This document shows positions 6,129 to 34,490 of a DNA stretch of 64,000 nt, in pieces. A program made the translations under genes and the position numbers. The stretch covers positions 4,930-68,929 of the forward strand of contig JADGFA010000020.1 of assembly GCA_016744065.1 (NCBI GenBank), read 5' to 3'. Below the pieces are notes generated by a model. That model searched no databases and was not told where the DNA came from. It saw nothing but the letters and a program-made list of their open reading frames with translations. The stretch is from Gammaproteobacteria bacterium. GTDB lineage: Bacteria; Pseudomonadota; Gammaproteobacteria; SZUA-229. Numbering within the stretch: position 1 is the first letter of the stretch; the number at the start of each line of letters is the position of its first letter.

Positions 6129-9100
6129 ATGGTTTTGTTTGCAATAAATATAAGATTTATATTTTTATCTCTAGTTATAGGTCTTATACCTGCATATAGC
6201 TCCGCATCAATAGATATTAGCGTTGATGTAACCGGCACTGACAGGGGGGCATCTAGCGCCGCCAGCAAGGTTTTTGTAGAACGCATTGAACTTAGTTTCC
6301 CTAATAACCGCGCATCGCAAACGGTTAATTTAAACAGCAAAAAATTATATGCCAGAGCAAAATTTAAATACCTGGGTAATGGCCCATTAATTGTTCGCTG
6401 GAAGGTGGATGGTCGTGTTATTTCACAAAGCTCCGAAATTTTAACCTTTGGCAAAGAAGTTGAAATTCGTTCAGATAAAAATAAAACCTTTTTACCTACT
6501 TATCAACGTGGTTCCCATGTTGTTACTTTAGAGTTGCGTAATAGTAGTGGCTTAATTGATGTAACAGTACCCACTATCAAATACTTTGTAGCCGATGGTG
6601 TAGCGGGGCTGGAAACGGATACACCATTAAGGCTAATGTATCCTTCTGCAGCACAGGTCGATCCAGCCAAAGTTTATTTTCGTTGGCAGGGTCAGTCCTT
6701 ATTTAAAGCTTACTCTATTGAAGTGCAGCGCATAGCCAGCAAAACGGTCAGCGCAGCAACACTTATAAAGGCCATCAGTGATATTGATGTTTATTCCCCT
6801 ACAGATAAAACACGCTCAGAGTTTGTAGCCGCTGATTATCGTTGGCGGGTTAAGGGTATATATCAGGGTAAGAAATTAAAACCCTTAACATCTAAGTGGG
6901 CAAATTTTAGTGTGTCTAATGATGCATTATCTGGTGGCTTATTTATTCGACAGATTAGTGCAGAAACATCCATTTCTGATACAGGTTTATCTGCACAGTC
7001 TTTGCAGATAAAGCAGCAAATTATAAATAATTCACAGCGATTAATATCCCCTCAACATGTGGTTTCTCAGGGCAATATTACAGCGGGAAGTGGTTATCAA
7101 TTAAATATTGAGTTGCAGAACTCAGGCTTTATTGATGCGAATAATGCCGCAGTAGAAGTGCATGATCACTCAGGGTTAATAGGTCGATATCCAGTGACTG
7201 CAGCGGTTAATAATAATGTATCTGTTTTAATTTCGTTAGATGCAGATAGTAACAACCAGATCAGTTATGAAAATTTAAATATTATTTTATTAAATAATAA
7301 CCATGTTATAGATGAAGGTGCAATTAACTTAACCATCAGTCCTGAGTTACGTTTAGATGCACTAGATTTTGATGAAATAAATACTCAGCTAGGCGAAGTA
7401 GTTGCCATTGCTAACCCTTGTGGTAGTACATCTCCTGCGCATAATTTAGCTTTTAGTCGTATGGTTTCTGCACGATCACTACAATCTACACAATCTGTAT
7501 TAGACACGGGATCTTTTACCTTTGTAAAAAATCAGAATATAGAGTTCACAGCTTACTTAAAAGATAAAGGCCTGGGCAACTGGTTTGCATCATCACGCAA
7601 TAATTGCGGGATTTCACCCTTATCGCCTTTTGATCGTAGAGCATTAAACGATGAAATTGATGACTTACTGGCATTAGTTCAGCAATGTTATTCAGAGCAT
7701 ACAGGTAATAACCCTGATAAAAGCTGTAAGAACCAGATCAATGCATTAAGTGCAGCTCAGGAGCAACGTAATCAGGATGATATTTATAATGGTAATGCTT
7801 TTCATCTACAGTTTATTGCACATCCTTTAGACCAGTATGGCCAGCTATCAGGTGAGCCGATTGAAATCGGTCAGGTTACAGTTAATAAAAATAATGATGG
7901 TTTAGTAAAAAGTCCTTTCTGGAAAGTTCCTGAATCAGGTCAATATAAAATAACGTTAAATGACATTAGCGAACCGGTTGATTTGTTTGCAACCAATATC
8001 AATGGTCTGCCTAAATATATACATGCAGGTGGATTTGTTTTAGAGCTGGATCAAGTACATTCAAGCTCTGATATAACGAATATGAATCCGCGCCAGGCCA
8101 GTATTAATGGTGTGGCTTATACCCACTGGGCAGGTGATAGCTCACAACAAAGGTTATTACTGGATTTAGATAATGTATCCGTCACAATGCAGGCAAATCC
8201 GCTACATGGGGTTTTAAGTGGGGGTGAACTTAATTTAAAAGAAAACCAGTCAATTACATTGGCGTTAAAAGATGTATCCATGCAATTAAACCAGTTGCAA
8301 TTAAATATTAGCGGCGCAATAGCTGATCTGGCATATAAAATGCCGGGTTATAACCCCAGTATGTTTTCTAATATAACTTCATATTCGTTCACTAAAGGTG
8401 GAAAAGGTGAAGTAATACAAAATTCTATACCCAATAATGGCAACATTAAATTTCAGCAGTTGAAAATATTTAATGGCGGTGAATTTGTTGCACGTTATGA
8501 TTTTGACAATAGTTGGGCTGATACACGTTTAAATAATGATGATTTAGCACTTCGTTTAAAAGGTAGCACGCTAGTTATTGATGCCTCAAAGCATTTTAGT
8601 TTTACTGACTACACCAGTGAAGAAGAGTTTACTGGTATGGGATTTTATAATGCACTTGTACGGCTTAAAGTAAATAACTCAAATGGATTGTTTAGCTTAG
8701 TTGATGCAGAGCATGGGTTTATTTATGGCCGAGCTAACTGGTTAAATTATTCAGAAAACAATGTAAGTGGTGAAAATATTGAAGTGGTTTCAGCAGTGAA
8801 TGTTGCTGATTTTTTTAATCAGACAGTTGCTACTGAATTTGAGTTATTGCAGCCATTTGGCTTTAAGTTAAAAATAACAGGGGGTGTTTTTAGTCTTGAA
8901 GATTCACAGATTGGTGGACTAGACCTGTCCGGTTCAGTAAATTTACCTGGCAGTAATGATAGCGATGAGAATGCATTGTCCCATGTTATCTCTAATCATG
9001 AGTTTGTTTTTCAGCACTTGCATCGTCGAGCTTCAGCTACCGGTGTGAATTTGTTTAGTACTGAATTAGTCGATGATTCATCAATCAATTTCTCAGTTGG

Positions 9101-28887: not shown

Positions 28888-30753
28888 ATGTGGTTGAGTA
28901 ATACTAAAAGCAGTGCATTTATATTTTTATTTGTTTACTGGTTAGCTTTTAATTTTCTGGTGCTTCATACACCTTTCACCGTTTTTAACTCACCCGATGT
29001 GAGTGCAATTAATTATGTGCAGTATATAAACAGTAATGCACAATCCCCTGACGAAATAAAACAACAAAACTGGCAAACCATATCGCTACCAGATGACTGG
29101 TATAACAATCATAAAAACATAAAACAGGTATGGTACAGAGCTAACTTAACTTTGGATAAAGACAGTGAAGAGCAGGTCTGGGCTGCTTATCTGCCCTCAG
29201 TAACCCATAATGCGGCTGTATATATTAATGGATTCTGGGTAGGACAGGGCGGGCAGTTTACTGATCCGGTTTCCCGCAATCAAAATAAACCTTTGTTATT
29301 TAGCTTTTCATCAAAATTATTACATCAGGGCAACAATCAAATAGATATAAGAGTTAAGGCCGCATTTTTTGAGCAGGGTTTAATGGATGAGTTTTACCTT
29401 GCTCCCGAGTCCCAGTTACATGATGCCTATGTATGGAAAAAAATCATACGTGTTGACCTGGTTCGCTGGATGACGATGGTTATGTATGTACTGTCATTAA
29501 TTGTTTTTGCATTCTGGTTAGCTCGTCCGCAGGACAGTATTTACGGCCTGTTTGCATTAGAACTGTTTATCTGGGCAACACATAATTTAAATTTATTTGT
29601 ATCAGATATTCCTGTATCAGTTAGTATCTGGGAAGCCATGACCATAAGCACACTTGGCTGGACGGTGGTTGCGATGATATTTTTTAATCATCGATTTGTT
29701 GGTGAGAAAAATATTATTGTAGAAAAAGTAATTGTAGTTTTTTCTGTACTCGGTATAGGTATATTTTTTCTTCCTGATATAAGTAGCATTATGCATATTG
29801 GCTATAGCATATGGGATGCATTCGTTATGATTTTTGGTATTTATGCCATTGTTCATCTTATAAGGGTATATCAGCATAAGGGTGATTCTGATGTGTTTTT
29901 GATGTTAGTGGTGGGCATACCTATACTGGTTTTTGGTTTTCATGATATCTTGATGATCAATCACTTCATTGATAGACGTGACGGCTTGACTATTCAGTTT
30001 AGCGTTATACCTTCAGTAATATTATTTAGCTGGTTTCTTGTGCGTCGATTTGTACAGTCAATTAATAAAGCAGAACACCTGGCTGAAACATTAGAGCAAC
30101 GAGTCAATGAAAAGCAGCAGGAATTACAGTTACAGTACGAAAAATTAAAATCGATGGAAAAAGACAGTATTCTTTCAGAAGAACGGGAACGCATTATGCG
30201 TGATATGCACGATGGTATCGGAGGGCAGTTAGTCTCTGTTGTTATGATGTTACAGGAACAGACAGGCGAGGTATTTACCCATGTATGTGAAAAAGTACAA
30301 CACAGTTTAACTGATTTACGTTTTGTAATTGACTCGTTAGATCCCTTATTAAGTGACCTTCCTACGCTGTTAGGGATGATGCGTATACGCCTGGTTGACC
30401 AACTGGAAGCGGCAAACATTGAGCTGGAATGGGCCGTTACTGAACTACCCGAAGTGGCAAACATGAGCCCTCGACGTAGTTTGCATATTATGCGAATAGT
30501 GCAGGAAGCGATAACCAATAGCATAAAACATTCAGGTTCTGAAAAAATGACATTAGCTACAGGCGTAATAAACGATAATATTTATATAGATGTAATAGAT
30601 TATGGAAAAGGATTTAAATCGTCTGAAAAAAATGAGGGCAGGGGCATTAAAAACATGCATTACCGTGCTCAGCAATTAAAAGCAGGCCTGGAATTTAATT
30701 CATTAACTAATGGGGTGTCTATTCGTTTATTGCTTGGTATTAATACTAAATAA
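28888..30753 (+). CDS. Sensor histidine kinase, 7TMR-DISM type with HisKA_3/HATPase_c
   Basis: N-terminal signal + periplasmic domain (7TMR-DISMED2-like). Seven TM helices (residues ~200-400). H-box ERERIMRDMHDGIGGQL typical of HisKA_3 kinases that partner NarL-type regulators. C-terminal HATPase G-boxes (VIDYGKGF). Confidence 0.8.
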   Translation: MWLSNTKSSAFIFLFVYWLAFNFLVLHTPFTVFNSPDVSAINYVQYINSNAQSPDEIKQQNWQTISLPDDWYNNHKNIKQVWYRANLTLDKDSEEQVWAAYLPSVTHNAAVYINGFWVGQGGQFTDPVSRNQNKPLLFSFSSKLLHQGNNQIDIRVKAAFFEQGLMDEFYLAPESQLHDAYVWKKIIRVDLVRWMTMVMYVLSLIVFAFWLARPQDSIYGLFALELFIWATHNLNLFVSDIPVSVSIWEAMTISTLGWTVVAMIFFNHRFVGEKNIIVEKVIVVFSVLGIGIFFLPDISSIMHIGYSIWDAFVMIFGIYAIVHLIRVYQHKGDSDVFLMLVVGIPILVFGFHDILMINHFIDRRDGLTIQFSVIPSVILFSWFLVRRFVQSINKAEHLAETLEQRVNEKQQELQLQYEKLKSMEKDSILSEERERIMRDMHDGIGGQLVSVVMMLQEQTGEVFTHVCEKVQHSLTDLRFVIDSLDPLLSDLPTLLGMMRIRLVDQLEAANIELEWAVTELPEVANMSPRRSLHIMRIVQEAITNSIKHSGSEKMTLATGVINDNIYIDVIDYGKGFKSSEKNEGRGIKNMHYRAQQLKAGLEFNSLTNGVSIRLLLGINTK

Positions 30754-30794: not shown

Positions 30795-30963
30795 AGTAAA
30801 AATGTACAGATTCAGTATAAGGTTCCATGGATTTATGTCTGATCTCTTATATGTGATTTAGTGATATAATCTTATCCAGTCTTTAGCTTCTTGGTGCTAC
30901 GGTATCTATGTTATTGCAGTTTTTCATGTTCATTGTTTTTTACAGATAAACTTTATCGTTTTA

Positions 30964-31260
30964 TTATGCATTATCTACTTCAATGTTCCATTCTTTCTCA
31001 TAACCTGATTTTTCTAAATAACCACCTAAAGAATTATATAATTTTTCGGTCCAATATTGTGAGCTTCCATCACATGGTAATGTGATGTTGCCTTCGGCAG
31101 ATTTATTAATCATTTCCCAGAAAAACTTACTTAGTATAGTTGCTTCTTCCCTGGATGATACAGATCCAAGTGTTATGATTTCTTTTGCTTTAGAGTTTTC
31201 TAGTAGGTTAGCAAAATATAAAGCCACTACTTTTTCTTCTTCGTAATTATATTCGATCAT
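30964..31260 (-). CDS. Hypothetical cytoplasmic protein (98 aa)
   Basis: ORF in an AT-rich islet. No signal peptide and no recognisable family. Could be an orphan immunity-type protein. Confidence 0.35.
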   Translation of the reverse strand: MIEYNYEEEKVVALYFANLLENSKAKEIITLGSVSSREEATILSKFFWEMINKSAEGNITLPCDGSSQYWTEKLYNSLGGYLEKSGYEKEWNIEVDNA

Positions 31261-31421
31261 AGTGCTTTCCTTGCGTCTTTCATTACAGACATGCGATATG
31301 CTACCATTTTTAATTTTTGTACTAGTTGATATAATGTCATTGGTTCAGTTATTGTAAGTAAGAAATGTCCTTTTTTCTTTTTATCAGGCATGAACTTCAT
31401 ATGTTGTGATATAAGCGAGGA

Positions 31422-31820
31422 TCAAAGCACTGGACACTCAACTATTTCATAATTTGATAAGTCACCATTAGGCCCATACTTTTCATCATTAGCCAGTTCA
31501 CTTAACTTTTCGGTACTTTCGTAACCAAGTGGTTCGGCGTCAATTAAGCTTTCAAAGTGAATTTTATGAATATTTATCTGTCCTGTGATATTGGGACACT
31601 GTTGTGTCCATACTGCATCTATAATAACGGCACAGGAAGAAGATAGTACATCTATACCTGCATCAGTTAGTTCCTGAGCACTTTGCTCAAGTGTTTCATT
31701 GTCTGGATAATCGCAACCAAGAATAAGATCCGTATCGTAGATATAAAGGCTATCTTCAGGTGAGCTTTCAGAGCAAGCTGTTATAAATAATCCAATAAAA
31801 ATTAGTGGTATATATCTCAT
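31422..31820 (-). CDS. Lipoprotein (132 aa), candidate immunity protein
   Basis: Lipobox LFITAC. Acidic, Cys-containing periplasmic domain. Lies downstream of the Tlde1-like toxin gene on the same strand. Confidence 0.5.
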   Translation of the reverse strand: MRYIPLIFIGLFITACSESSPEDSLYIYDTDLILGCDYPDNETLEQSAQELTDAGIDVLSSSCAVIIDAVWTQQCPNITGQINIHKIHFESLIDAEPLGYESTEKLSELANDEKYGPNGDLSNYEIVECPVL

Positions 31821-31852
31821 ATAAAACTCCGTTCTAGCTGATAAGTGTTAAT

Positions 31853-32437
31853 TTATTTGTTAGAATTTTCACTGAAGCTATCAACACATATTTTATACTG
31901 GTTAGCATTTAATGCTTTTTTAAAATAAACTTTATTTTGTTCAAGAAATATGGGCTTATTTTCTATGTGTTTTCCTTCAAAGCCAAAGTATGCGTTTAAT
32001 CTATTGCAGTTTGATAGAGTTAAGAAAGGGAGTTGATTTAAAATATTTAAGAATACATCTTTATTTTCAATATATATTGGCATTAAGTCTGATGCCAGAT
32101 ATTCATTAAATGCTCCCGATTTTTTTTCATGAGCATAAAATGCATAAAACATTATAATTTTCAATCGTTTGGTGCTATGTTTATTATCAGAAAGATCAGC
32201 TTTTATGTTATTTATGTATATGTCTTCAAGTTCCTTAAATTTTTTTAATGAGTCTGGTTGTTTTTTTCCTTTTGCGTCAATATATGTATATTTGTCTTCG
32301 TTTAAATTTAAAAGATTTGACAGAATAGTTGAGTATTCATTTTCTTTATTCTTATCTGTATTTGATGCGTTTATAGACGAGCATGCTGATATTAGAATAA
32401 GTAATATTAATAGTATGCTTTTCATAGGATTAACCAT
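31853..32437 (-). CDS. Lipoprotein (194 aa), candidate immunity protein
   Basis: Lipobox LILISAC. 8-nt overlap with the upstream Tlde1-like gene, suggesting translational coupling. Confidence 0.5.
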   Translation of the reverse strand: MVNPMKSILLILLILISACSSINASNTDKNKENEYSTILSNLLNLNEDKYTYIDAKGKKQPDSLKKFKELEDIYINNIKADLSDNKHSTKRLKIIMFYAFYAHEKKSGAFNEYLASDLMPIYIENKDVFLNILNQLPFLTLSNCNRLNAYFGFEGKHIENKPIFLEQNKVYFKKALNANQYKICVDSFSENSNK

Positions 32438-32789
32438 TTATCACAACTGTTACGTTATGCCCGTTCTTTGGCGTGATTGCATTATGTATTTTAATTATCT
32501 TATCTTCATCTATAACAATACAACCATCAGACCACTTTTCATATGGCGGTTTTCCCATATGTATAAATATTTCAGAAAAACCTGCGACATTAGGTAAAAA
32601 TACTGCTTCTCGCGGCATGCCTTTCGAGTTCTTTTTTCGTGTCATTGTGGTTGCTGAACAACTCATGTACGTGCCGGCTGGAATTTTTTTAGTTGCATTC
32701 CAATAACATTGAGTCGTAATGATCTTTCCTGCTGAGGTAAATGTTAAAGTACCGTTTTTAGCTAATCTTTTTATTGTAATTTTGTACAT
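32430..32789 (-). CDS. Tlde1/DUF2778-like L,D-transpeptidase-fold toxin domain protein (119 aa)
   Basis: No signal peptide. Pattern C..........IPAGTY ... FIHMGKPPYEKWSDGCIVID reproduces the conserved CxxxxxxIPxGxY and H...(S)xGC(I) catalytic His/Cys arrangement of YkuD-like LDT domains and the T6SS Tlde1 effector family. Confidence 0.5.
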   Translation of the reverse strand: MYKITIKRLAKNGTLTFTSAGKIITTQCYWNATKKIPAGTYMSCSATTMTRKKNSKGMPREAVFLPNVAGFSEIFIHMGKPPYEKWSDGCIVIDEDKIIKIHNAITPKNGHNVTVVING

Positions 32790-33283
32790 GACTTTGAGTT
32801 CTTCAGTATTTGATGAGGTTTTTTGATATCTTTTTTTGCTTCACGGTGAAGTATTACATTATATGTCATTTTCTTTTTCCCTTCTCTGGCAGCCCTAGCT
32901 CCTTTTTGAGGTCTGAAAGAGATGACGATTGCTTAGTTTTCTTTTGTATATCCATTTCGAGTTTACGTCTAGCTATCTCGGCGCGTTCTTCACTTGTCAA
33001 CTGGAGATCTTCAATATTATTCATTTATCAAGTTCCTTTTTGAAGTCATTTAAATTTTGTGCTCCATTTTTGTCATCAGCTCGAGTACTAATAGCTTCAA
33101 TATTCTGCTGTGCATCTAATTGGTCTAAAAACAAGTCATACTGCTCGGCTGTCAGTATTGCTCCAATATTTTTCCGTTAGAGGAGAGGACTGGCTCCGTT
33201 TTTTGATGCTTGAGTGATTTTACAAACTCTAATATTGAGTCAGTATCACTGACATCTTTTTCTTTATATTCATCGACACTCAT
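32771..33283 (-). pseudogene. Decayed type II toxin-antitoxin locus: frameshifted Phd/YefM-like antitoxin, a 52-aa antitoxin-like ORF, and a 32-aa RelE/ParE N-terminal stub
   Basis: Minus-strand translations: MSVDEYKEKDVSDTDSILEFVKSLKHQKTEPVLSSNGKILEQY* then, after a +1 shift, LTAEQYDLFLDQLDAQQNIEAISTRADDKNGAQNLNDFKKELDK* (Phd/YefM-like). ATGA-overlapped MNNIEDLQLTSEERAEIARRKLEM...SLSDLKKELGLPEKGKRK*. ATGA-overlapped MTYNVILHREAKKDIKKPHQILK...*, a RelE/ParE-type start truncated where the Tlde1-like gene begins. Confidence 0.4.
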
Positions 33284-33911
33284 ATGCTTTTCCTTTATTG
33301 GTGTTGATATAGAGCTAAACGCTTTGCTAAGGGGCTGTTAACCCAGTAGTTATAGCTTTTATTGTAGTGGTTAGTAGTGTAACCCGAAAATGTAGTAGAA
33401 GTTAAGGGGTGAACGCATTAGTGTCCACTGAAACAAAGGAAGTCCAAAAACAAATATTGAGCTGTCTATTCATCTAGTTTAAAGTCTTGTCAAGATCAAG
33501 CAGATTCAACTGAAAAGCATATATAAACGGGCACTATAAAGGCGTTGGAAGGGCCGTTACGTCATACTGGCAGCTTATTGCTGATTAATTGCCTCCTTCT
33601 AATAAAGAAACAAAAGAATGTCTAATGAAACGCCTTTAAAAGTGGGGTTGTGATGTAAAAGCGGATAGGCAGGGGCACAGTACACTATATTATTCAAATA
33701 CCCATAATTATGAAACGGTGCAGGATGTCATTGTCGAGCATTACGCGGTGTTGTAAAATATCGAGCTCACGGTAGAAGGTATTATTAAAATACACATACT
33801 ACTTAAGTGGGATTAAAGTTCGAAATACATTAAGAGCACTATAAATTTTTTTTAAAATGATAGTATTGTGGCTATCGGTAAAAATTAAAATGCAATTACA
33901 AATGGGAAGCT

Positions 33912-34490
33912 ATGAAAAATAAACACTATATGATGGTTGGCATCATCATTGTCGGTATAACCCTTCTTCTGTCTTTTTTTATCAGTCTGTTAATGAGTGG
34001 GCTGGTTGGTATTGTGTCTGGATTAGTTGTCTATTTTATTCTGAAGCAGGGTAAAGACGATGCGACTCAATCAACGCCATCAAATGAACCTGCACCAAAA
34101 AATGACAGTGAGCAAGGCATTGAGTTATTGCTTGTGGCGAATATCACATTACGAAAAGCAGTCATACCTGAAAAGATTCGTGATGTATATGAAGAGATCA
34201 TTGATCAGTTAATCGCACTTCTCCCTCGCGTTAATGAGTCAAGTCCTGATGGGGAACTGGCCTGGGTTATTAATCGTATGGCAACCGAGTATCTGCCCCA
34301 AAAGTCAATTAAACCGTATCTTGCTTTGAGTGAAGGTGAACGCCAGGATAAAGATGTCATTGAAAAAGTTATTGAATCATTATCGGGTATGAAATCTGAA
34401 CTGGAAGATGTTAAAGATATACTCAGCCAGCGAAAAACAAATGAATTTAATACGAAAGCCAAATTTTTGAAACAACGTTTCAATATCTAA
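33912..34490 (+). CDS. Membrane-anchored protein, possibly XpaC-like (5-bromo-4-chloroindolyl phosphate hydrolysis protein family)
   Basis: Two N-terminal TM helices followed by a ~140 aa charged helical domain. Sits directly upstream of a TelA-like gene, the same xpaC-yaaN(TelA) pairing as in Bacillus. The family call is from memory and not verified. Confidence 0.35.
   Translation: MKNKHYMMVGIIIVGITLLLSFFISLLMSGLVGIVSGLVVYFILKQGKDDATQSTPSNEPAPKNDSEQGIELLLVANITLRKAVIPEKIRDVYEEIIDQLIALLPRVNESSPDGELAWVINRMATEYLPQKSIKPYLALSEGERQDKDVIEKVIESLSGMKSELEDVKDILSQRKTNEFNTKAKFLKQRFNI

Follow-up and report, generated by a model that had tools for sequence, protein, structure and literature searches.

An AT-rich islet on a contig of a Gammaproteobacteria bacterium (GenBank assembly GCA_016744065.1, contig JADGFA010000020.1, positions 4,930 to 68,929; the whole 64,000-nucleotide stretch is called the window here) carries two closely adjoining genes, one for a protein of 119 amino acids (aa) with L,D-transpeptidase (LDT)-like motifs and the other for a 194-aa lipoprotein. 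All open reading frames (ORFs) called in the islet lie on the minus strand, and the GC content is 0.26-0.34 over 31800-32800 versus 0.37-0.41 in the flanking kinase and TelA genes. The islet is bordered by a convergent histidine-kinase gene (28888-30753, plus strand) and by a divergent TelA-type operon that starts at 33912 (plus strand). The first-pass annotation of this DNA had described an AT-rich islet with a 119-aa ORF and two lipoprotein genes on one strand, which is borne out by the ORFs, the GC content and the lipoboxes. The two genes at its core are as follows.

32430-32789, minus strand: predicted effector of 119 aa, a minimal YkuD/LDT-fold Cys-His enzyme without a signal peptide, with His77 and Cys90 as candidate catalytic residues.
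31853-32437, minus strand: predicted cognate immunity protein, a 194-aa lipoprotein with the lipobox ISAC (Cys19) and an all-alpha mature part; likely start Met5 at 32425.

The two ORFs share 8 bp; should translation of the second start at Met5 (32425), the position equivalent to that at which several homologues of the 194-aa protein begin, 4 nt lie between them instead. Either way the arrangement is that of a bicistron in which a protein without a signal peptide is followed by an exported partner.

The N-terminus of the 119-aa protein, read from the sequence as MYKITIKRLAKNGTLTF, has no hydrophobic segment, in keeping with the earlier description of an ORF lacking a signal peptide, and such a segment is also missing from the relatives of about 120 aa. 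The motifs are C28-x7-I36PAGTY41 and H77-x9-S87DGC90, with the His and Cys 13 residues apart; the arrangement reported at first pass is therefore present, but its spacings (x6 in the first motif, H(x15)SDGC in the second) were wrong. Among 5.8 billion proteins searched, 82 homologues with a length of about 120 aa and 47-100% identity were recovered, whose named hosts are marine gammaproteobacteria (Teredinibacter, Aliikangiella, Paraglaciecola) and whose annotations read 'hypothetical', 'DUF5675' or 'L,D-transpeptidase family'. When the window protein was aligned with 36 homologues at 44-82% identity, 21 positions were invariant, including C28, I36, P37, Y41, C44, H77, W86, S87 and C90, and A38, D88 and G89 were conserved in at least 90% of the sequences. 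H77 and S87-x-G89-C90 are conserved across the family, also in the alignment of the species loci, that is, the 45 loci with a relative of the 119-aa protein that were taken from one genome per GTDB species.

Profile searches place this protein near several YkuD-related families and inside none of them. Its best Pfam match is DUF5675 (PF18925; 24.5 bits, E = 2.6e-5), followed by YkuD (PF03734; 21.2 bits, E = 4.5e-4, profile positions 42-142 of 146), both being below the gathering scores of 26.7 and 23.4 bits, respectively. The profile check proposed at first pass, against Tlde1_dom/DUF2778 (PF10908) and YkuD, thus came out negative, with no PF10908 match (gathering score 30.1 bits) at E<=1 and a YkuD score of 21.2 bits under the cut-off. 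All 37 aligned members match DUF5675 (best E = 1.6e-7) and YkuD (best E = 5.8e-7) weakly, at E<=1, whereas Tlde1_dom is matched by only 16 of the 37, again weakly (best E = 0.006). Some longer relatives score above the YkuD threshold (P0126, 24.0 bits; P0135, 24.9 bits; P0171, 26.6 bits). In profile-profile comparison with hhalign, H77...GC90 was aligned on the H...GC of a genuine DUF5675 protein with 30% probability, and WSDGC on the ISQGC of a genuine Tlde1-domain protein (locus L015, 13187-13645) with 5.5% probability over 20 columns. When 1.84 billion cluster representatives were searched with the family profile, only 134 clusters matched at E<=1e-3, and the large YkuD or DUF5675 families were not drawn in.

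Neither the single protein nor the family profile matched any PDB sequence at E<=10, and fold comparison alone succeeded. The predicted model has the beta-rich YkuD fold. It is matched best by two L,D-carboxypeptidases, Csd6 and Pgp2, and by ordinary LDTs, at 13-16% sequence identity. Tlde1a (PDB 7UMA) reaches a structural Z of only 7.6 and is not the closest structure, as Csd6, Pgp2 and LDTs rank better. According to the model, the 119-aa protein has a YkuD/L,D-transpeptidase fold with a conserved His/Cys pair, and it belongs to a small separate, apparently undescribed family that is related to but distinct from Tlde1. Of the Tlde1/DUF2778-like LDT fold assigned at first pass, the LDT fold and the His/Cys pair could be retained, but membership in PF10908 could not, since no profile match exists. 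Some family members are fused to muramoyl-alanine amidase domains, Amidase_3 in P0134 and Amidase_2 in P0137, and because of these fusions peptidoglycan is the likely substrate of the LDT-like domain.

The 194-aa protein carries a lipoprotein signal, read from the sequence as MKSILLILLILISAC followed by SS, with an ISAC lipobox, and its mature part is predicted to be all-alpha. It has no meaningful match in Pfam (DUF2195 included), NCBIfam or PADLOC, and none of its 32 homologues contains a Pfam domain. Cys144 and Cys184 are invariant in close homologues and at least 90% conserved across the species loci. A homologue of this protein lies immediately downstream of the LDT-like gene in 39 of the 45 species loci, in most of them with a gap of -8 to +13 nt, and the downstream partners carry a lipobox or a Sec signal peptide. 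Across 32 loci the pairwise identities of both proteins are correlated (r = 0.80; none of 2000 Mantel permutations was as high), and the partner diverges faster, with a mean identity of 35% versus 56% for the LDT-like protein. The 194-aa lipoprotein is a conserved, co-diverging partner of the LDT-like protein.

The neighbourhood of the relatives links the family to type VI secretion systems (T6SS). ORFs of the related loci were clustered and the recurrent neighbours were checked against Pfam, by which 10 of the 45 species loci (L024, L026-L029, L035, L036, L040, L053 and L055) and, in addition, the metagenomic locus L007 were found to have TssF/G, ClpV, TssM, TssC, Hcp or VgrG no more than 10 kb from the module. 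Among the hosts of these loci are Kangiellaceae, Planctomycetes (Brocadia) and Phycisphaerae, and L028 belongs to a cultured bacterium, Aliikangiella marina GYP-15; another carrier of the family is Simiduia litorea KMM 9504 (L020). By chance, a gene would be expected this near T6SS core genes in about 1% of genomes, as estimated from typical cluster and genome sizes, so that the 22% linkage represents a strong enrichment. The pair lies between ClpV and TssC in four Kangiellaceae genomes and shortly after Hcp in L024, L035 and L036, and in two planctomycete loci (one of a Candidatus Brocadia) the LDT-like gene is flanked by ClpV and a TssC gene and the lipoprotein is missing. Three small enzymes, each paired with an exported protein, are encoded one pair after the other between Hcp and VgrG in L007, and one of these pairs belongs to this family.

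The arrangement in L007 (2470-9680; GCA_964491635.1, CAZBIS010000002.1), an interval type also noted for L008 and L009, can be described further. The first pair consists of a 92-aa candidate LAS-type peptidase (weak LAS/Hedgehog-N-like match) and a lipoprotein, the second of a true DUF5675 protein and a 164-aa secreted protein, and the third of the LDT-like family member and a 180-aa partner, with a SIMPL-domain gene in between. From this sequence context, DUF5675 proper may also be a T6SS effector family.

Besides T6SS clusters, the pair occurs in mobile and unrelated settings. The closest relative, 89% identical in the LDT-like protein, is found at locus L015 in the metagenome-assembled genome Gammaproteobacteria bacterium D96SM.bin.20 (JAKISP010000048.1), where an IntI-type integrase gene (Phage_int_SAM_4 and Phage_integrase domains; 7418-8395) lies upstream of the pair. 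Attachment-site (attC)-like inverted repeats follow the cassette of the pair and two others (10953-11017, 12408-12524 and 13925-13992), and GTTAGGC and GTTAGAT cores bound the pair; judging from these features, the pair in L015 is an integron cassette. A genuine Tlde1_dom gene (13187-13645; PF10908, E = 4.8e-31) lies three cassettes beyond the pair in the same array, so that two different LDT-fold toxin modules, as they are predicted to be, share one array. The region 7418-13992 as a whole is a chromosomal integron adjoining metG, whose cassettes include an FRG-domain gene and the Tlde1_dom gene together with one for an 87-aa membrane protein.

Repeats of the attC-like type also follow the pair in L047, L048 and L054, and a short hairpin was recovered in L037 by the same inverted-repeat scan. 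Orphan insertions were found after aroE (Teredinibacter), after glmS beside an integrase, and in islets that also hold toxin-antitoxin genes (YoeB/YefM or HicA). In one such case (L014/L032, 8001-11940 of OZ246012.1) glmS borders the pair on one side and the 3' end of an IntI-type integrase gene on the other. The cassette array does not include the pair; it extends on the far side of the integrase and contains genes matching T6SS_Tdi1_C and ParE_toxin.

In the window, DNA similarity to L015 (blastn, 82.6% identity) extends over 32789-31847 and ends 6 nt beyond the stop codon of the lipoprotein gene. Because this similarity begins exactly at the ATG of the LDT-like gene, the native 5' region has been replaced in the window. 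The synteny of response regulator, 236-aa protein and kinase is kept in the closest relatives, in none of which TelA lies downstream; the pair in the window was horizontally acquired and stands at a synteny break. No relative free of the islet was found via the neighbouring histidine kinase, and the boundaries of the islet are thus without a comparative definition.

Comparison with known systems places the pair closest in organisation to Tlde1 (Tae5/6/7; PF10908) and Tldi1 (DUF2195) of the Salmonella pathogenicity island 6 (SPI-6) T6SS. Tlde1 likewise is a small single LDT-fold domain without a signal peptide and with a His...S-x-G-Cys motif, its gene adjoins a gene for an exported protein, and both occur in T6SS clusters. 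Tlde1 trims or exchanges the terminal D-Ala of tetrapeptide stems, with H121 and C131 being essential in Tlde1a, and by analogy the 119-aa protein would also trim or exchange at the meso-diaminopimelate3-D-Ala4 (mDAP3-D-Ala4) position of stems, with the periplasm as target. On the other hand, Tlde1 is 171-173 aa long versus 119 aa here and has the motif S-H-G-C versus S-D-G-C here, the 119-aa protein has no significant PF10908 match, and the His-Cys spacing is 10 in Tlde1a (H121-C131) versus 13. The capping subdomain of Tlde1a (7UMA) is probably absent from the 119-aa protein, judged by its size and predicted secondary structure. Tldi1 is a DUF2195 protein encoded upstream, whereas an all-alpha lipoprotein is encoded downstream here, and the hosts of Tlde1 are enterics and Burkholderia, whereas this family is mainly found in marine Gammaproteobacteria, plus Planctomycetes and Ignavibacteria. 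The module would work like Tlde1-Tldi1, although it falls outside Tlde1_dom in profile, structural rank, spacing and type of immunity protein.

DUF5675, an uncharacterised family of the YkuD clan (MEROPS C82-like) in bacteria and phages, resembles the 119-aa protein in its length of about 115-120 aa and in the alignment of the H...GC motifs, and a genuine member with an exported partner of its own shares the Hcp-VgrG interval of L007 with this family. It differs in that the window protein scores below its threshold, that no phage members are found in this family, and that the family profile stays at 134 clusters. Csd6 (Helicobacter pylori), Pgp2 (Campylobacter jejuni), LdtMt2 and Ldtfm also differ, being Sec-exported, multidomain, vertically inherited housekeeping enzymes, whereas the 119-aa protein is a bare catalytic domain, mobile, and accompanied by a putative inhibitor. 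It has neither the signal peptide nor the anchor by which a YkuD enzyme would be exported in its producer. Canonical LDTs and Csd6 carry accessory domains. Pgp2 carries an NTF2-like domain (PMC8038945).

Given the conserved pairing, the exported partner and the T6SS linkage of relatives, the core of the islet is probably an effector-immunity module of two genes, with an antibacterial role, that represents a new LDT-fold family and is an orphan in this window. The orphan effector-immunity island suggested at first pass is thereby the best reading, with relatives of the pair lying inside T6SS clusters. The 119-aa protein would be a bare LDT-fold cysteine peptidase (about 13 kDa) that lacks a signal for export and is synthesised in the cytoplasm; in the periplasm of a rival it would attack the peptide stems of peptidoglycan and so act as a toxin. 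Its most likely activity would be that of an L,D-carboxypeptidase, or D-amino-acid exchange, at the terminal D-Ala of the tetrapeptide stem, as in Csd6, Pgp2 and Tlde1, and L,D-endopeptidase activity might be an alternative. Delivery could proceed by an Hcp-borne T6SS, because the genes of relatives adjoin Hcp/VgrG and an effector of about 13 kDa is small enough to fit the lumen of the Hcp tube. The 194-aa lipoprotein, placed in the periplasm of the producer, would bind and block incoming or leaked enzyme as a stoichiometric inhibitor. The orphan pair in the window might serve a T6SS elsewhere in the genome, or it might persist mainly for its immunity gene.

Several observations weigh against this effector-immunity interpretation. 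Neither T6SS genes nor an integrase or attC site are present in the 64-kb window: Pfam scans of the islet ORFs and of 30 larger ORFs outside the islet found no T6SS, VgrG or Hcp gene (small ORFs elsewhere were not scanned and PAAR was not specifically searched), tblastn of the window with T6SS proteins from related loci gave no match, and a plain inverted-repeat scan, which recovered L015 as a positive control, showed no attC-like inverted repeat, with no integrase present either. The first-pass annotation had likewise seen no T6SS or VgrG. Moreover, 35 of the 45 related loci have no T6SS gene within 10 kb, although many of these contigs are short, and some family members have an N-terminal multi-pass membrane domain and stand next to giant ORFs rather than T6SS genes. 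At the residue level, S-D-G-C replaces the canonical (S/T)-H-G-C, and the Arg/Asn that follows the Cys-hydrophobic step is absent, so that the activity could differ from that of known LDTs. Finally, the window copy has a weak ribosome-binding (Shine-Dalgarno) context and has lost its native upstream region, by which its expression is made uncertain.

The last point leads to the alternative that fares best, in which the pair is an immunity-only relic: horizontally acquired by a host without a T6SS, which keeps the lipoprotein against the effector of its neighbours while the toxin gene is silent or decaying. The missing secretion genes of the window, the replaced 5' region and weak Shine-Dalgarno context of the toxin gene, and the decayed copies elsewhere (L034, L035, L037, L056 and L057) would all fit this explanation. 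In L035 the LDT-like gene is substituted at conserved positions and the partner is truncated, so that this copy appears to be decaying, and the toxin ORFs are split or truncated in L034, L037, L056 and L057. Orphan immunity genes are well known for T6SS systems. An orphan Tai6/Rap1a is discussed in the Tlde1 preprint (10.1101/2020.02.18.954545). The toxin ORF of the window, however, is intact and has the consensus residue at every family-conserved column, which indicates continuing selection or a very recent arrival. As a general explanation the relic is unlikely, and for this particular copy it is plausible and compatible with an effector-immunity module.

It is quite unlikely that the 119-aa protein is instead a housekeeping or stress wall-remodelling enzyme acting on its own wall, be it an L,D-carboxypeptidase like Csd6/Pgp2 or an L,D-transpeptidase, with the lipoprotein as a regulator or outer-membrane tether. 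Such a role might be read from the shape-determining L,D-carboxypeptidases and ordinary LDTs that head the structural matches, and a multi-pass membrane anchor fused in some family members would fit a self-acting enzyme. Yet a 119-aa protein without a signal peptide or anchor could not reach its own periplasm by Sec, the distribution of the family is patchy (134 clusters among 1.84 billion representatives), and the pair is inserted in unrelated contexts (aroE, glmS, integron arrays and T6SS clusters), with an atypical composition in the window.

Delivery by a route other than the T6SS, such as a giant-protein system beside the membrane-anchored variants, outer-membrane vesicles or release by lysis, is very unlikely for the form found here. 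The direct succession of P0132 and P0126 to ORFs of 2025-3808 aa without Pfam domains would speak for it, as would the lack of a T6SS gene within 10 kb at most loci, but the free-standing 120-aa form of the window is the form that occurs in T6SS clusters, often adjoining Hcp/VgrG, and no link of this form to another secretion machine was found.

A phage-derived lysis or defence module, with a DUF5675-type endolysin-like enzyme and a spanin-like or superinfection-exclusion partner, is rejected as a highly improbable origin, because no sequence relatives were found in IMG/VR (2.9 million contigs), GenBank phages (50,697 records) or PLSDB plasmids, the examined neighbourhoods hold no holin, terminase, capsid or other phage genes, the islet ORFs have no PADLOC match, and the 194-aa partner is all-alpha without a C-terminal membrane helix, unlike known spanins. 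What could be cited in its favour are DUF5675 domains in phages, proposed as C82-like lysins (bioRxiv 10.64898/2026.04.11.717860) and present in ORF1 of Vibrio phage Virtus (PMC9229204), a weak match of the 119-aa protein to phrog_1501 (E = 0.0015), and fold-level matches to phage proteins (template-modelling score, TM, 0.72 at 18% identity).

If the effector-immunity interpretation holds, Tlde1 would be joined by another effector family with the LDT fold, one that is minimal in structure and has an unrelated immunity protein. T6SS effectors that target peptidoglycan provide new cell-wall chemistry and antibacterial enzymes, and the 119-aa scaffold could help to define the minimal catalytic requirements of YkuD enzymes. 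Such weapons would be extended to marine Gammaproteobacteria and Planctomycetes, effector-immunity pairs would be documented as moving integron cassettes, and about 100 annotations as 'hypothetical', 'DUF5675' or 'L,D-transpeptidase family' could be corrected. In the full-text literature searched, no LDT-fold T6SS effector family besides Tlde1 was found, an absence which does not prove novelty, and DUF5675 figures there solely as a domain of phages or lysins without an assigned function. A more far-reaching possibility, which we consider tentative, is that the LDT fold was recruited a second time, independently, as an interbacterial weapon. At about 119 aa the enzyme would be the smallest of the YkuD type known so far, its immunity protein would found a new family of all-alpha lipoproteins, and the two would move together as a self-contained integron cassette, passing between chromosomal arrays and T6SS clusters across phyla (Gammaproteobacteria, Planctomycetes and Ignavibacteria). 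In that case S-D-G-C might confer a bond specificity other than that of Tlde1, for example L,D-endopeptidase cleavage of 3-3 cross-links, and the membrane-anchored variants might use an undescribed delivery route.

The remaining features of the islet are not part of the conserved module and comprise the following.

31422-31820, minus strand: 132-aa lipoprotein with the lipobox ITAC, a passenger of the islet.
30964-31400, minus strand: small ORFs of 47 aa (31257-31400) and 98 aa (30964-31260) with a 4-bp overlap, not conserved with the module.
32790-33283, minus strand: upstream leader holding small ORFs at 33152-33283 (43 aa) and 32866-33024 (52 aa), where the native 5' region is replaced.

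The 132-aa protein, separated from the 194-aa ORF by a gap of 32 nt, has a lipoprotein signal read from the sequence as MRYIPLIFIGLFITAC followed by SE, with an ITAC lipobox. Its only homologue among 5.8 billion proteins, 53% identical, lies amid unrelated genes without an LDT-like gene, and the 132-aa protein is absent from all 45 related loci. It is rejected as a second immunity gene, so that of the two candidate immunity lipoproteins put forward earlier only the 194-aa protein, the conserved partner, is kept. The 47-aa and 98-aa ORFs have no match in Pfam, NCBIfam, PHROG or PADLOC and are absent from the related loci, and no islet ORF has a meaningful match in NCBIfam or PADLOC. In a scan for promoters and terminators, promoter-like sites did not exceed the chance frequency, and some terminator-like matches were obtained. 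In the upstream leader, one ORF resembles a frameshifted Phd/YefM-like antitoxin (...EPVLSSNGKILEQY/LTAEQYDLFLDQL...) and another a RelE/ParE-like N-terminus (MTYNVILHREAKKDIKK) cut 6 nt before the toxin ATG, both being unconfirmed resemblances with no Pfam match. The idea that 32790-33283 is toxin-antitoxin debris is an impression by eye, with no Pfam support even for the frameshift-corrected sequence.

Some related loci carry further small genes. In the T6SS clusters of L024 (6778-7340) and L035 (9309-9871), Hcp and the LDT-like gene are separated by a gene for a HicA toxin (Pfam E = 2.5e-9) and one for its probable HicB partner. The planctomycete T6SS clusters L040 (Planctomycetia) and L055 (Candidatus Brocadia pituitae) have no lipoprotein partner, and a conserved protein of 166-182 aa with an NHCAHFV motif and no Pfam match precedes the LDT-like gene; in L036 (Phycisphaerae) a related 219-aa protein follows it. 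From its motif, this protein could be another Cys-peptidase effector. In the variants P0132 and P0126, and also in P0130, P0135, P0140 and P0161, an N-terminal domain of about 200 aa, multi-pass membrane-like as judged from the sequence and with a conserved ERSVEVYL motif, is fused to the LDT-like domain, and the genes of the first two (L142, 1-9017; L143, 1-8972) directly follow the giant ORFs of 2025-3808 aa. These membrane-domain variants possibly belong to a different delivery or anchoring context.

Elsewhere in the window (6129-27251, plus strand), genes for proteins with fn3 and PKD/Big_9 domains (450, 360, 728 and 881 aa) come after a 4617-aa ORF, and next in order are a LuxR-type response regulator, the 236-aa protein and the histidine kinase bordering the islet. 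Judged from its gene content, this region resembles a locus for giant surface proteins that has a two-component system of its own.

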